From the NCBI RefSeq assembly GCF_056746865.1, contig NZ_CM163382.1: 64,000 bases of DNA; one strand, 5' to 3'. The translations under genes were made by a program, and so were the position numbers. The notes under the pieces were generated by a model. It saw nothing but the letters and a program-made list of their open reading frames with translations, ran no database searches and was not told the DNA's origin. Below are positions 54,361 through 60,341 of this stretch, in pieces. Each line of letters opens with the position of its first letter. The stretch's first letter is position 1.

Positions 54361-55500
54361 TTACCAGTTATGAATGTCGCTGGCTGTATCCGTCATGTAA
54401 CGGACACCGCTAATAGTTGGCAGCAACTGATTGATCAGACGGTTCCAGCGGGAAACCGGGGCGGTGGTGACATACACCACGTCATAAGGTTGCAGGCGGA
54501 ATTCTGTCGCCATCACCAGCGACGTCGCATCGGACATATCCAGCTGGTAGATATTGGCAATCTTGCCGTTACGCCCGCCCTCGCCTTTCAACGGACGAAT
54601 GACAAAGATGCCGCTGGCGTTGGAGGTGGTCATGTCGATGCCTTCGGCATTGCCCAGAGCTTCAGTCAGGGTCATGCCGCTAAAGTCCATTTTCAGGGTG
54701 CTCTGTTTCTTCACTTCACCCATCACAAATACTTTCAGATCATCATTACGCGGCACGTAGAGAATATCGCCGGGATAAAGCAGTCGGTTCTGATTGAGGT
54801 CGCCGTTTTGCATCAGCGCCTGCAAAGAAATGCGTTCTTCACGACCATTGTGTGTTAGCACCACGTTGCGCCAGTCAGCGGTGTCGGTCAGACCACCTGC
54901 GGCGTTGATGGCGTCGAGAATGGTCAGTGGTACGTTGGTGATCGCCTGTTGACCGGATTTATTCACCTGACCTGAGATATAGGCCTTTTGCGAGCGGAAG
55001 GCGGCGATATTAACGTCCACCTGCGGGTCAGCGATGTACGTCGCTAAGCGCCCGGTAATATCACTGCGGATTTCAGCGAGCGTTTTCCCGACTACGTGGA
55101 CCTTGCCGATATACGGGTAAAACATAGTGCCGTCAGGCTGTACCCAGTTGCCGGTGTCGCTGGAGCTGCGGTACTGACCGGCTGGCGTGGTGAGTTCCGG
55201 GTGATCCCAGACGGTGACATTAAGAACGTCCCCCGGCCCGACGCGATACTGGTAATTCGCGATCTCACTTTCCAGCGTCATATTGGGGCGCGCTACATTC
55301 GGGCGTGGGCGTAATTGGTCAATCAGGCGCGGGGTCAGCGGATAAACATTCACCATTTTGTCGAGATCGAAATCAGCGTCCTGCTGTTTGATGACGTCTT
55401 TGCCCATCGTCGACATATTGCTGCCCGGAAGTACTGTGCAACCGCTTATCAAGGTTACTGACACCAATAATGGCATCAATTTCATTTTGGATTTCATCAT
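54361..55500 (-). CDS. wza: Outer-membrane polysaccharide export lipoprotein (OPX)
   Basis: 379 aa ORF with lipoprotein signal ([21 protein letters not shown]); first gene of the colanic acid operon. Confidence 0.95.
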
Positions 55501-55678
55501 TGTTTATTTATCACTTTGGCAGAGTAATTATCCTGTGCACTATTAATAGCAATGTCGCCATGCACATTTACCTTGCAGTTAATTGAATAAAAATTTAACT
55601 GGCATCAGTCCTAAAAAAATTGATTTCATCCGCAGGCTATTGACAGAATAATTCAGACTGGTCTTTCAGGCATCCAGA

Positions 55679-55712
55679 CACGCTACCGCCCCTGGCTTTT
55701 TAGCTACCAATA
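55679..55712 (-). promoter_or_regulatory. JUMPstart element with ops site in the colanic acid operon leader
   Basis: Plus strand reads cacgctaccgcccctggctttttagctaccaa; the reverse complement carries GGCGGTAGCGTG upstream of wza. Near-identical to the element at 31509. Confidence 0.85.
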
Positions 55713-56158
55713 CACTGATTTAGTTTAATTTTTCACACCCTCTCAGCATGCAGTCGTTGATGAGAAAGGGTTATTACGGAAATTAACTTCCGAATATAAG
55801 GTGACATTATGGTAATTGAATATTGGCTTTCCAATAATGCAGGAGGAAGTGTTACAGCTAACGGAATAGCAGGCAAGGTAACAATTCGGCAATTGGCTAT
55901 TTTTAAGAATTATATTAAGTGTCATTCAATATGGTTTTTAGGAGTTTCTTTAGGTTGACAATATTTAATATTGCGCCTCCACATGCGATATTTCTTAAAT
56001 AATGTTTTATTATTACCACTTTTAATTCAGGGATAATGTGAGGTTATTACCCTCAAATAATATGAGATAAATAGTGCTGCAACATTGCATTTTTGCCCCG
56101 ATTTATCCATGATCGAATTGTGACATTTGTCATACAACGAATAGGTTTTGTACTTACT

Positions 56159-57742
56159 ATGGAATGGATTGCCGATCCGTCTATCTGGGCCGGGTTAATC
56201 ACGCTGATTGTGATCGAACTGGTCCTCGGCATTGATAACCTGGTCTTTATTGCCATCCTCGCCGAAAAACTACCGCCGAAGCAGCGCGACCGCGCACGGG
56301 TTACCGGGCTGCTGCTGGCGATGTTAATGCGCCTGTTACTGCTGGCGTCAATCTCCTGGCTGGTCACCCTGACTCAACCGCTGTTCAGCTTCCGCTCGTT
56401 TACCTTTAGCGCCCGCGACTTAATCATGCTGTTTGGTGGTTTCTTCCTGTTGTTCAAAGCCACGATGGAGCTGAACGAACGGCTGGAAGGGAAAGACAGC
56501 AATAATCCCACACAACGCAAAGGTGCGAAGTTCTGGGGCGTGGTGACGCAAATTGTGGTACTGGACGCCATTTTCTCACTCGACTCAGTGATTACCGCCG
56601 TCGGGATGGTCGACCATTTACTGGTCATGATGGCCGCCGTGGTTATCGCTATCAGCCTGATGTTGATGGCCAGCAAGCCGTTAACGCAATTTGTTAACAG
56701 TCACCCGACCATCGTTATTCTCTGCTTAAGCTTCCTGTTGATGATTGGCTTTAGCCTGGTGGCAGAAGGTTTCGGCTTCGTCATTCCGAAAGGCTACCTG
56801 TACGCTGCCATTGGTTTCTCGGTGATGATCGAGGCGCTCAATCAGTTGGCTATCTTTAACCGGCGACGTTTTCTTTCCGCTAACCAGACGCTGCGCCAGC
56901 GGACTACCGAAGCGGTAATGCGCCTGCTTAGCGGGCAAAAAGAAGATGCGGAACTGGACGCCGAAACCGCGTCCATGCTGGTGGATCATGGTAACCAGCA
57001 GATCTTTAATCCGCAGGAACGGCGGATGATTGAGCGGGTACTAAATCTTAACCAGCGTACCGTCAGCAGCATTATGACGTCGCGCCACGATATTGAGCAT
57101 ATCGATCTCAACGCGCCGGAAGACGAGATCCGCCAGTTGCTGGAGCGAAATCAGCATACGCGGCTGGTGGTTACCGACGGTGATGACGCAGAAGATTTGC
57201 TCGGTGTTGTTCACGTTATCGACCTGCTACAACAGTCTCTGCGCGGCGAACCGCTCAACCTGCGGGTGTTGATTCGCCAGCCGCTGGTGTTCCCGGAAAC
57301 CTTGCCGTTGTTACCTGCCCTGGAGCAGTTCCGTAATGCCCGCACGCACTTTGCTTTTGTGGTGGATGAGTTTGGCTCGGTGGAAGGGATTGTGACATTA
57401 AGTGACGTCACTGAAACCATTGCCGGTAACTTACCGAACGAAGTGGAAGAGATCGACGCCCGCCATGATATTCAGAAGAATGCGGACGGTTCCTGGACGG
57501 CGAATGGTCATATGCCGCTGGAGGATCTGGTGCAATATGTGCCGCTGCCGCTGGATGAAAAACGTGAATATCACACCATTGCCGGGCTGTTGATGGAGTA
57601 TTTGCAGCGTATTCCAAAACCTGGCGAAGAAGTTCAGGTGGGGGATTATTTGCTTAAAACGTTGCAGGTAGAAAGCCATCGCGTGCAGAAGGTGCAGATT
57701 ATTCCGCTGCGTAAGGATGGCGAGATGGAGTACGAGGTGTGA
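56159..57742 (+). CDS. yegH: TerC-family inner-membrane protein with C-terminal CBS and CorC/HlyC transporter-associated domains
   Basis: Start trimmed to [34 protein letters not shown] (ATG at 56159), 527 aa. Confidence 0.85.
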
Positions 57743-57749
57743 TAAAACA

Positions 57750-57780
57750 TCAAATGCGCAGGTTCAAACTGCGCATTTGA
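57750..57780 (+). terminator. Hairpin terminator downstream of yegH
   Basis: Perfect inverted repeat caaatgcgcagg-ttcaaa-ctgcgcatttg followed by a T-rich stretch; sits just upstream of the toxin gene's -10 box. Confidence 0.6.
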
Positions 57781-57816
57781 TTTATACAAAATTTAGTATA
57801 ATCTAAGGATGGAGTA

Positions 57817-58155
57817 ATGAGAAAAAAGCTGGCTTTTCTTGATACCAGTCTTGACGATTTACGCGCATTTCCAGAATCGTCTCGACAGGAAATTGGCTAT
57901 CAACTCGACAGGATCCAACAAGGGTTAAACCCATACGACTGGAAACCTTTTTCAACTATCGGCCCTGGTGTGCGAGAGATTCGTACTCGCGATGCTGATG
58001 GGATCTATCGCGTCATGTATGTCGCAAAATTTGAAGAAGCGGTTTACGTATTGCATTGTTTTCAAAAGAAAACACAGACTACCAGTCAATCGGATATTGA
58101 TTTAGCCAAACGACGCTATAAAGAACTTGTTCAGGAGCGGAAAAATGAAAATTGA
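57817..58155 (+). CDS. RelE/HigB-like type II toxin (phage Gp49-like fold), putative
   Basis: 112 aa ORF preceded by RBS aaggatggag and a TATAAT box at 57797-57802; small, basic, upstream-toxin arrangement overlapping a downstream HTH gene. Family assignment is by resemblance only. Confidence 0.6.
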   Translation: MRKKLAFLDTSLDDLRAFPESSRQEIGYQLDRIQQGLNPYDWKPFSTIGPGVREIRTRDADGIYRVMYVAKFEEAVYVLHCFQKKTQTTSQSDIDLAKRRYKELVQERKNEN

Positions 58156-58435
58156 AACCTTTGATAGTGTGTGGGATGCGGTGAGTGACACCCCTGAACA
58201 AGCGGAAAATATGCGGATCCGTGCCGAACTTGTTACGATCATTAATAACTGGATTGAACAACAAGGGTTTAGCCAGGCTCAGGCAGCGTCTGCTTTAGGG
58301 GTCACTCAACCTCGCATATCTGAACTTGCCAGAGGTAAAATCCAGATCTTTAGTATCGATAAATTGATCACCATGATGGCTCATGCAGGGTTGCATATTC
58401 AACGTATTGAAGTTCAATATCCACATGCTGCTTAG
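58145..58435 (+). CDS. XRE-family helix-turn-helix antitoxin (HigA-like), putative
   Basis: Start placed at MKIETFDSVWDAVSDT (ATG at 58145), overlapping the toxin stop by 11 nt; contains a typical XRE HTH (QAQAASALGVTQPRISELARGK). Confidence 0.6.
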   Translation: MKIETFDSVWDAVSDTPEQAENMRIRAELVTIINNWIEQQGFSQAQAASALGVTQPRISELARGKIQIFSIDKLITMMAHAGLHIQRIEVQYPHAA

Positions 58436-58487
58436 TGCTATAAATACAGATGGCGACAAATTGACGCCGCCATCTGCATAACTTGTC

Positions 58488-60341
58488 TTACATCTTCTCC
58501 AGCAACTTCTTCACATCTTTGCCATTGCGGGAATCTTTATTCCGCTCGGCCCAGTCATTCAGGCGACGTTTCGCTTCGTCCTGTAGATGTTTGCGTAGCA
58601 GCTGGTCCACTTGCAGGCTGTAATTAAGTTGCTGCCAGTTGCCATAAACCCGCAGCGGTACTGGCGTTTCTTTGAGGAAATCAATCAGTTTGCTTTCCCC
58701 GTTCCAGCCCCCCACGACCCGAATATCAAACTGGGTGTCACAGGTTTGCTCCGCCAGATTCAACGTACCAGCCCCGGAAAGCGCCAGCATGGGCGATTGA
58801 CCTTGCATGTCGTTTAACGTCACGACGCCATCCTTCAACGTCAAATCGGTGGTAAAGCGGTCAAGACGCGTTACGTTATCGAAGTTTTCAGCGGCCTTCA
58901 CATCACCACCATTACGTTCTACCGCTTGCTGAATCATCTGCTGGAAGTTCATCCCTTCCATGCGCGTGTCGGTCATTTCGACATGTGCCTGTCCTTGCCA
59001 GTTATGGCGGAATGCGTCGGCATCTATGTCAGCACCGGAGAAATCACCAGCCAGTGACATCTTTCCGGTCAACGAAATCGGATAGTTAAACGCCTTCAGA
59101 ATGGTACCAATCTCAACGTTTTCCAGCCGTGGCTGGAAGTTTATCCGCGGATTTATTGATGTCGCGTCCAGCGTGCCCGGCAGTGAAACCTGTCCACCGT
59201 TAAGTTTGCCCTGCAGTTGAGTAATTTCCAGCAAACCCGACTTGTTGGTCATTTGCGTGGCAACATCTGTAAAATTCATTCCGCGCCAGCGCACGTTACT
59301 GGCCTGCAACAAAATATCAGCCGTAAAGCCTTGCAGTCCCTGATAGGCCGGTTCATCAATACGCGAAGAAATGACCGGGCGCGGCAACGTTGATTGGCTC
59401 TGCCCCTGCTGCGCGGCACCGTTTTCACCGTTCGCTGTTTCATTAAGCGGGATGAGGTTGTCAAGATTCAGTTGCGGGAATTGCAGTCTCAGCTGCCATT
59501 CCGGTTTCTCTGTCAACGTGACCTGTGCTTGCCCGCTCAGCGTACTGTCATTGGCGGTCAAACTAATTTGGTTAAATGAAAGGCGTTTATGTGACTCCTG
59601 CCACTGGGCCTGGAAACTCCCCTGCCCCTGAATACCTTGTTTTGGTAAATCTGCACCCTGCAACTGCCAGTTAACTTGTTCAATAGCCGCCGTTAAATCA
59701 TGCGGATAATCAGAAGCATCTACCGTACCGTTAAGGGATATCGTGAGATCGCGCTGATCGCGATTAACCCGCCCGGAGAACTCAAATGAACCACGATGTT
59801 GGGGATCTTGTTCCATTTGCAGGCGAATATTGCGGATTGTCACCTGCTCGTCATCTTCATGCTGGAACACCAGCACGCTGTCCGCCACCTTAAGACTGGA
59901 TATATCAAACGACCATCCGCGATCGTCTGACAGATCCGGCAAGGTATTGTCGCGTGGTGCAACCGGGGCATCTTCACTGCGTACCGCTTCCGTCTGCGGC
60001 GTCAGTTGGATCACTGCCCCTTTTAGCATCACCTGCTTAACGCTCAGTTGATGACTCAGCAGTGGTAAAAGCGCCACGTCCAGACGCATGTTGTCTGCGC
60101 GAACCAGTGGCTGGCTCGCGCCCTGGGCAGTGAGAGACATTCGCCCGGAGAGGATACTAAGTTGCGGCCAGACGTGCCAACGCAGTGGCCCGTCGAGCTG
60201 CAATTGATAACCGCTACGTGCAGCAACTTGCTTGACCATATAGTCGCGGAAATCATTCGGATTCACCAGCAACACTAACGCAGATAACCCGGCCACCAGC
60301 ACGACCAGGAGTATCATCAGCGTCGTCAGAAATCGTCTCAT
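58488..60341 (-). CDS. asmA: AsmA outer-membrane-assembly protein (AsmA-like family)
   Basis: 617 aa ORF with N-terminal signal anchor (MRRFLTTLMILLVVLVAGLSALVLLVNPNDF). Confidence 0.9.
   Translation of the reverse strand: MRRFLTTLMILLVVLVAGLSALVLLVNPNDFRDYMVKQVAARSGYQLQLDGPLRWHVWPQLSILSGRMSLTAQGASQPLVRADNMRLDVALLPLLSHQLSVKQVMLKGAVIQLTPQTEAVRSEDAPVAPRDNTLPDLSDDRGWSFDISSLKVADSVLVFQHEDDEQVTIRNIRLQMEQDPQHRGSFEFSGRVNRDQRDLTISLNGTVDASDYPHDLTAAIEQVNWQLQGADLPKQGIQGQGSFQAQWQESHKRLSFNQISLTANDSTLSGQAQVTLTEKPEWQLRLQFPQLNLDNLIPLNETANGENGAAQQGQSQSTLPRPVISSRIDEPAYQGLQGFTADILLQASNVRWRGMNFTDVATQMTNKSGLLEITQLQGKLNGGQVSLPGTLDATSINPRINFQPRLENVEIGTILKAFNYPISLTGKMSLAGDFSGADIDADAFRHNWQGQAHVEMTDTRMEGMNFQQMIQQAVERNGGDVKAAENFDNVTRLDRFTTDLTLKDGVVTLNDMQGQSPMLALSGAGTLNLAEQTCDTQFDIRVVGGWNGESKLIDFLKETPVPLRVYGNWQQLNYSLQVDQLLRKHLQDEAKRRLNDWAERNKDSRNGKDVKKLLEKM

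Follow-up and report, generated by a model that had tools for sequence, protein, structure and literature searches.

Two small overlapping genes between yegH and asmA very probably form a chromosomal type II toxin-antitoxin operon of the Gp49/HTH_37 class, arranged in the 'reverse' order with the toxin gene first. The case is drawn from gene structure, family membership, fold, the conservation of residues equivalent to catalytic ones, a conserved palindrome ahead of the toxin gene, and the distribution of the pair in the E. coli population. The pair itself is already known, being annotated in RefSeq, present in EDL933 and in the type strain ATCC 11775, and part of a well-described class. For a locus identical to the one studied here, RefSeq names the two products "type II toxin-antitoxin system RelE/ParE family toxin" (WP_001227701.1) and "helix-turn-helix domain-containing protein" (WP_000687872.1), and O157:H7 EDL933 encodes both proteins in identical form. 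Literature searches with the two WP accessions, and for yegH or asmA together with toxin, returned nothing specific. The features of the locus are given below, with positions counted along the window, that is, the whole stretch of 64,000 nucleotides that was analysed.

56159-57742, plus strand: yegH, TerC-family membrane protein, the conserved left neighbour (named so by RefSeq at the identical locus; K-12 homology reaches no further than its stop codon)
57749-57781, no strand assigned: hairpin after the yegH stop, perfect 13-bp stem and 7-nt loop (-20.6 kcal/mol, z=-6.9)
57783-57800, no strand assigned: 18-bp palindrome TATACAAAATTTAGTATA, probable operator of the HTH_37 antitoxin, overlapping the -10 box (comparative sequence)
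57797-57802, plus strand: -10 box TATAAT, without a good -35 (sequence)
57805-57814, plus strand: ribosome-binding site of the toxin gene, AAGGATGGAG, Shine-Dalgarno AAGGA/GGAG (sequence)
57817-58155, plus strand: toxin gene, 112 aa, Gp49 family of the RelE/ParE superfamily, WP_001227701.1 (Pfam, PHROG, AF2, Foldseek)
57876-57913, plus strand: two 15-nt direct repeats, 23 nt apart, within the toxin gene (repeat search)
58133-58137, plus strand: ribosome-binding site of the antitoxin gene, AGGAG, within the toxin coding sequence and 7 nt before the antitoxin ATG (sequence)
58145 (ATG)-58435, plus strand: antitoxin gene, 96 aa, HTH_37/XRE DNA-binding protein, WP_000687872.1 (Pfam, PDB match)
58444-58479, minus strand: hairpin with T-rich tail, probable asmA terminator (-24.8 kcal/mol on the minus strand, z -5.6)
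58488-60341, minus strand: asmA, the conserved right neighbour (homology to K-12 restarts at its stop codon)

The spacer from the yegH stop (57742, plus strand) to the asmA stop (58488, minus strand) measures 745 bp and houses the two plus-strand ORFs. An earlier sequence-only reading had described two small overlapping plus-strand genes of 112 and about 96 aa between these neighbours, with the toxin first, an 11-nt overlap and an XRE HTH protein encoded second, and the coordinates, the ORFs and the Pfam matches bear out each of these points. It had also proposed an HMM search of both proteins, in which gene 1 matched Gp49/DUF891 (PF05973) and gene 2 matched HTH_37, HTH_3 and HTH_31. Since the Pfam matches are full-length, the homologues number 7804, and all seven antitoxin substitutions between the window and EDL933 are synonymous, we concluded that both ORFs are real genes. 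The surrounding genes are housekeeping and envelope genes and do not constitute a defence island; with the pair flanked by two core genes, no transposase, resolvase or res site was found near it. A search of Rfam over 55400-58700 placed no RNA family within the module, its sole match being the JUMPstart element upstream of wza.

The toxin matched Pfam Gp49/DUF891 (PF05973) with E=1.5e-30, its residues 13-102 covering positions 1-90 of the 90-position model, and matched PHROG 2523 with E=5.7e-37. The homologues were collected at E <= 1e-5, and among the matches listed PF05973 was present in 120/120. An AF2 model built with 38 homologues in the alignment reached a pLDDT of 92.9 and predicts a RelE-type fold, in which an antiparallel sheet lies on N-terminal helices and is followed by a long C-terminal helix. 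The predicted elements are a short strand assigned by DSSP (residues 4-7), helices at 11-16 and 20-34, the four main strands at 42-44, 52-58, 64-71 and 75-84, and a final helix at 91-111. When the model was compared with solved structures by Foldseek, M. tuberculosis HigB1 (7awk/7nbu) ranked first with a TM of 0.67, followed by S. pneumoniae HigB (6af4), ParE2, RelE and V. cholerae HigB2, all at probability 1.0. In sequence, the toxin resembles solved toxins weakly (phmmer, E=0.01 against 6af3).

The residues thought to matter for activity could nevertheless be traced through the alignments. By HMMER alignment, R65, F82 and K84 of the toxin correspond to residues R93, F110 and K112 of the S. 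pneumoniae HigB chain, which become native R73, F90 and K92 if, as we infer, the chain numbering carries a 20-residue tag offset. S. pneumoniae HigB R73 and K92 have been equated with M. tuberculosis HigB1 R77 and K95 and treated as catalytic, the K95A substitution abolishes the toxicity of HigB1, and F90 has been equated with HigB1 F93 and termed a core residue (PMC9098466). Toxin residues E54 and R56 correspond to HigB1 E66 and R68 by the E-x-R motif only. All five residues (E54, R56, R65, F82 and K84) are invariant in the 38 homologues, which are 54-81% identical, and the allele in the window retains every family-invariant residue, these five included. The catalytic-pocket positions equivalent to HigB1 E66, R68, R77, F93 and K95 thus appear to be present in the toxin.

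Calling the toxin HigB-like, as the sequence-only reading did, holds loosely, in that both belong to the RelE/ParE superfamily, but the protein is a member of the Gp49 family and gave no Pfam match to the canonical HigB families PF09907 and PF05015. Against NCBIfam TIGR02683 (upstrm_HI1419) it scored 27 bits (E=4.3e-6), below the 62.85-bit cut-off, and is accordingly related to that equivalog without being a member of it. For the antitoxin, the Pfam matches were HTH_37 (PF13744, E=5e-22), HTH_3 (5.4e-7) and HTH_31 (4.3e-5), and the solved HTH protein PDB 2a6c was matched with E=3.4e-14. The antitoxin scored 16.3 bits against the HigA equivalog TIGR02607, for which the cut-off is 47.7. Assignment to the HigA, HI1419 or Y4mF equivalogs was rejected, as the NCBIfam matches to these related toxin-antitoxin models all fell below their cut-offs. 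In every context examined, including Salmonella and Achromobacter, the HTH_37 gene is paired with a Gp49 gene and the toxin comes first. Gp49 and HTH_37 have been described as a recurrent pairing, found for example in Tn3-family transposons (PMC7157771), and gp49 ranks among 13 RelE/ParE families, its toxin gene preceding the antitoxin gene and its toxins cleaving mRNA in a ribosome-dependent manner (PMC11980606); both sources describe the pairing of a Gp49 toxin with an HTH antitoxin (PMC7157771, PMC11980606).

The strongest indication of how the pair is regulated comes from the 18-bp palindrome that overlaps the -10 box. When the upstream region was aligned with those of two Salmonella plasmid-type contigs, Pantoea and Cedecea, the palindrome was the sole conserved block and the flanks on either side differed. 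We extended the comparison to 83 loci, relatives with 58-71% protein identity taken from one-genome-per-species contigs and covering alpha-, beta- and gammaproteobacteria, acidobacteria and actinobacteria. A 16-mer core with the consensus ATACAAAATTTTGTAT lay no more than 130 nt ahead of the toxin gene in 44 of the 83 loci when at most one mismatch was allowed, in 62 with at most two, and in 69 with at most three, and elsewhere in the same loci ATACAAAATTTTGTAT had no match in 401,811 nt at up to three mismatches. The subfamily is very tightly conserved across proteobacteria, acidobacteria and actinobacteria and has its own conserved, probable operator. Given this comparative evidence, the palindrome is probably the operator of the antitoxin, which would regulate its own operon through it. 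A literature search with the palindrome sequence gave nothing specific, its one match being an unrelated fliP primer.

Most relatives have a TTG 8-10 nt upstream of the palindrome, so that, in a normal promoter layout, the palindrome covers both the spacer and the -10 box. In the window, a sigma-70 consensus scan of the plus strand passed no promoter, the -35 being poor (CATTTG at 17-nt spacing). On this comparison, the E. coli chromosomal copy has lost the -35 found in most relatives. The TATAAT box and the ribosome-binding site that the sequence-only reading had assigned to the pair are both there, but because the scan found no full sigma-70 promoter, the case for a promoter of its own comes down to the -10 box and the comparative palindrome.

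The hairpin at 57749-57781 begins 7 nt past the yegH stop and ends 2 nt ahead of the palindrome. It had been taken for a yegH terminator directly abutting the promoter of the pair, and its position agrees with this, but it scored as a terminator on the minus strand only and its plus-strand tail is T-poor; we regard it as probably the yegH terminator. It is missing upstream of related modules and from K-12-type alleles, and is best described as part of this spacer allele and not of the mobile module. The hairpin at 58444-58479 is stronger on the minus strand, which is where its T-rich tail sits.

As the sequence-only reading had stated, yegH and asmA are adjacent in K-12, where they are separated by a 273-bp spacer. 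Homology between the window and K-12 stops exactly at the yegH and asmA stop codons, and the spacers are unrelated. Of 5426 complete E. coli genomes, 792 (14.6%) have the entire spacer with an intact pair and 910 have at least part of it, whereas 3819 (70%) have the 273-bp K-12-type spacer. The expected strain variability was thus confirmed, and the pair is not universal at the site. The idea of an insertion fared less well. Because homology to K-12 ends at both stop codons and the whole spacer differs, we concluded that the spacer with the pair is an allele replacement and not a clean insertion. The converse idea, that the K-12 spacer is a decayed copy of the pair, was rejected, as no similarity was found between them.

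In hybrid alleles, the 5' part of the toxin gene has been overwritten by K-12-type sequence. One such junction, at 57986, is shared by 117 genomes (e.g. EcE.ESBL.COL, MS6198 and ECONIH1), in which K-12-type sequence runs straight into the toxin gene, the promoter and the first 56 toxin codons are gone and the antitoxin gene is intact; in strain WB61 the K-12-type sequence joins at 58384. Since a truncated gene must come from a complete one, the toxin-antitoxin pair is older than the K-12-type sequence in these hybrid lineages, and the same erosion, carried one step further, may have produced the K-12 state. The toxin gene of strains G5 and 2017-03-3CC is thrown out of frame by the loss of 23 nt (57881-57903) from the direct-repeat region. 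Substitutions at family-conserved toxin residues occur in ATCC 11775 (A97D) and 1000C-3 (G62E), a hint of attenuation in part of the population.

We compared eleven E. coli alleles, a small sample made up of the window and ten that were fetched. In four of them the toxin gene was broken and its antitoxin partner intact, and in one (G5) both genes were frameshifted; the reverse, an intact toxin gene with a broken antitoxin gene, occurred in none of the eleven. Such asymmetric loss is what an active toxin predicts, within the limits of so few alleles. Together these alleles indicate that the module is decaying in some E. coli lineages and that the toxin gene is lost first. The antitoxin gene showed seven synonymous and two non-synonymous substitutions, and the toxin gene, among intact alleles, one synonymous and four non-synonymous. 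Nucleotide diversity, estimated from eight sequences, was 0.007 for the toxin gene and promoter, 0.022 for the antitoxin gene and 0.027-0.035 for the flanking genes, and the window and EDL933 had zero differences over 57704-58227. With eight sequences, the uniformity of the toxin-promoter segment may reflect recombination tracts or recent spread, and it could result from recent recombinational spread among E. coli lineages beside the capsule/O-antigen recombination hot region. Divergence of the flanks from K-12 is mosaic, the 3' part of yegH being 99.6% identical and asmA 97.5%. From the comparison of spacers we concluded that the module has a single fixed position in the E. coli chromosome, where it represents one of several spacer alleles that alternate between yegH and asmA.

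Outside E. coli, the closest relatives (79-82% aa identity) lie on Salmonella contigs, beside IncFII repA or beside TraW, TraX and exclusion genes, and their 18-bp palindrome is the same as that in the window. Plasmids with a homologue numbered 637, roughly half of which are conjugative, and 23 phages or prophages also had one. From this distribution, the module is mobile across bacteria and common on plasmids. Three plasmid records at least 99% identical to the pair were set aside as probable chromosomal fragments, the one that was inspected also holding asmA and dcd. In a scan of the one-genome-per-species contigs for outgroup copies, the best match came from Pantoea (71%) and none from Escherichia or Salmonella; as the scan likewise missed the type strain ATCC 11775, which bears the pair, we regard this negative as unreliable.

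By homology, the pair would be expected to show toxicity, RNase activity, neutralisation and operator binding. The 112-aa toxin would be an endoribonuclease with a RelE fold, cutting mRNA at the A site of the ribosome, and the 96-aa antitoxin would bind and neutralise it. A dimer of the antitoxin, alone or with the toxin, is predicted to bind the palindrome TATACAAAATTTAGTATA, and because the palindrome overlaps the -10 box, we propose that the bound operon represses itself. The 11-nt overlap would couple translation of the antitoxin to that of the toxin.

Against such a working operon stands the possibility, which we consider unlikely, that the pair survives as a relic, inactive or attenuated, whose toxin no longer poisons translation and whose HTH protein is kept only as a small autoregulator. 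The Gp49 toxins HigB2 and HigB3 of M. tuberculosis were not toxic when tested (PMC9098466), so membership of the family is no guarantee of activity. The poor -35 of the E. coli copy, the circulation of frameshifted, truncated and conserved-site variant toxin alleles, and the few, mostly non-synonymous toxin substitutions among intact alleles point in the same direction. Yet the toxin allele in the window has kept all of the family-invariant and catalytic-equivalent residues, and its protein is identical in lineages as distant as the window and O157:H7 EDL933. The asymmetry of gene loss also argues against a relic, since a toxin that does no harm on its own would not be expected to produce it. 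An active toxin-antitoxin operon therefore remains our preferred reading of the pair. What such an operon might do for the cell is a separate matter, and protection against phage is one candidate, being a general property of several type II toxin-antitoxin systems. Applied to this pair, infection would deplete the antitoxin and the freed toxin would halt translation before progeny phage form. The homologues in prophages, the match to PHROG 2523 and a weak PADLOC match of the antitoxin to the candidate PDC-M64C are consistent with this abortive-infection-like function, which the sequence-only reading had raised. In contrast, neither protein significantly matched the curated defence-system models of PADLOC-DB v2, where the best matches were marginal (NsnC for the toxin, E=0.0014 over 47 residues and partial; PDC-M64C, E=6.2e-5; CapH, E=0.0066). 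The housekeeping and envelope genes around the pair are no defence island, and a literature search gave no support, so that we hold a role in phage defence to be very improbable.

Alternatively, the pair could act as a selfish stabiliser that penalises the recombinational replacement of the adjacent segment, which lies next to the capsule and O-antigen loci, or as an anti-addiction element against the toxins of F-like plasmids, in which case the antitoxin would neutralise and co-repress closely related plasmid toxins. The identical palindrome in Salmonella modules of 79-82% identity, on contigs with plasmid genes, suggests that the chromosomal antitoxin could repress and neutralise incoming plasmid copies, and vice versa. 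The region is one of allele swapping, with several spacer alleles and the mosaic divergence of the flanks, and the low diversity of the toxin-promoter segment relative to the flanking genes is compatible with recent spread. These points are purely circumstantial, however, and the diversity comes from eight sequences, where recombination tracts could explain it. In addition, the K-12-type spacer in 70% of genomes and the 117 eroded hybrids imply that replacement is evidently tolerated. We consider a stabilising or anti-addiction role distinctly unlikely, and are just as doubtful of an anti-addiction or locus-guarding element tuned specifically to the F-like plasmid relatives.

As one more accessory type II toxin-antitoxin module, the pair has little import beyond bookkeeping. 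The conserved palindrome, with its consensus ATACAAAATTTTGTAT, offers a directly testable regulatory site for the Gp49/HTH_37 subfamily across phyla. The E. coli alleles also form a natural series for the decay of a chromosomal toxin-antitoxin system, running from intact pairs through the truncated toxin gene (117 genomes) and the frameshift caused by the 23-nt deletion to full replacement. Finally, the yegH-asmA spacer is multi-allelic, which calls for caution wherever it serves as a 'conserved' flank for the colanic-acid/O-antigen region.

Among known systems, HigB2-HigA2 of V. cholerae (5ja8, 8a0x) resembles the pair in structure, with a RelE fold and C-terminal helix like those of our toxin model (Foldseek TM about 0.6) and, in HigA2, an operator-binding HTH protein; the antitoxin of the pair is likewise an HTH protein for which operator binding is predicted. 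V. cholerae HigB2 is placed under Pfam RelE PF06296 (PMC11980606), in contrast to the toxin of the pair, to which it is 10-16% identical. The canonical HigBA systems (Rts1/P. vulgaris HigB and E. coli K-12 HigB/YgjN; PF05015, PF09907) share with the pair the RelE/ParE superfamily, the reverse gene order and the HTH antitoxin, and ribosome-dependent mRNA cleavage would be expected in common, but they represent a different family within the superfamily (PMC11980606), and the toxin of the pair does not match their HigB and HigB-like Pfam models. The Gp49/HTH_37 modules of Tn3-family transposons (Tn4662a, TnPosp1 and others) combine PF05973 with PF13744, toxin first, just as the pair does, although around the E. 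coli pair there is neither a transposase or resolvase gene nor a res site.

Other modules that share PF05973 with the pair include M. tuberculosis HigB1/TAC (7awk, 7nbu), S. pneumoniae HigBA (6af3/6af4), A. baumannii HigBA2 and the Tad-Ata system of Paracoccus pAMI2. The M. tuberculosis TAC system includes a gene for a SecB-like chaperone, which the pair lacks, and the toxin of the pair, known here from its sequence and a model, is only about 18-21% identical to the solved Gp49 members. Despite this distance, the pair is like these modules in the RelE-type fold with a long C-terminal helix predicted for its toxin, in the toxin-first order with an XRE-type HTH antitoxin, and in the conservation of residues equivalent to the proposed catalytic set.

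Nucleotide diversity (pi) in the toxin gene and its promoter was 0.007, as against 0.022 for the antitoxin gene, 0.027 for asmA, and 0.035 for yegH, in a comparison of window positions 57704-58227 with EDL933 (L096) and the E. coli alleles L097 and L099-L103. Over these 524 nt the window and EDL933 showed 0 differences where about 10 were expected, and the few substitutions in the toxin gene were mostly amino-acid changing. Two strains, G5 and 2017-03-3CC (L097 and L103), shared a lesion in the portion of this gene that holds two 15-nt direct repeats:

Window 57881-57903: 23-nt frameshifting deletion, identical in both strains.

In both of these strains, and also in 1000C-3, galF was found in place of wza beside yegH, and we therefore concluded that the colanic-acid cluster has been replaced on the yegH side. 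In 1000C-3 the toxin-antitoxin pair was intact.

The K-12-type spacer, the alternative sequence between yegH and asmA, contained a match to the TwoAYGGAY RNA motif (RF01731) that, at 31.5 bits (E=0.0038; 411 nt searched), lay below the gathering score of 43. The element forms a single clear hairpin with the loop AUGGAU, is absent from the window, and has related copies at about 3 sites per genome. Its 389-nt full form was present in 1425 genomes, and K-12 has lost most of the RF01731 match through a 173-nt deletion. In strain Z226-7 the element is interrupted, with yegH on one side and a truncated toxin gene on the other:

L004:1112-1500 (EcE.ESBL.COL) and L001:987-1196 (K-12): TwoAYGGAY-like structured element, sub-threshold RF01731 match.
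L104:904-2287 (Z226-7): IS110-family insertion sequence within the TwoAYGGAY-like element.

The position of this insertion suggests that the element may be a favoured target of IS110-type sequences.

The 43-kb record NZ_CP083887.1 (L098), although labelled a plasmid, probably represents a chromosomal fragment that was misassigned, since asmA and dcd accompany the toxin gene in it; this reading comes from inspection of that record, and two further plasmid records of 365-439 kb are hits at 99% identity or more. A protein cluster look-up placed toxin (112 aa) and antitoxin (96 aa) together in one 90%-identity cluster of 705 members. Such a shared cluster is ruled out by their sequences, and the placement may have arisen artificially where gene calls in the collection are fused or overlap.

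Two further features of the window lie near wza:

55679-55717, minus strand, upstream of wza: JUMPstart RNA element (RF01707; 57.3 bits, E=8e-12).
55809-55958, plus strand: 49-aa ORF between wza and yegH, annotated in RefSeq as hypothetical protein WP_162829205.1.

A JUMPstart element upstream of wza is as expected for the leader of the colanic-acid operon.
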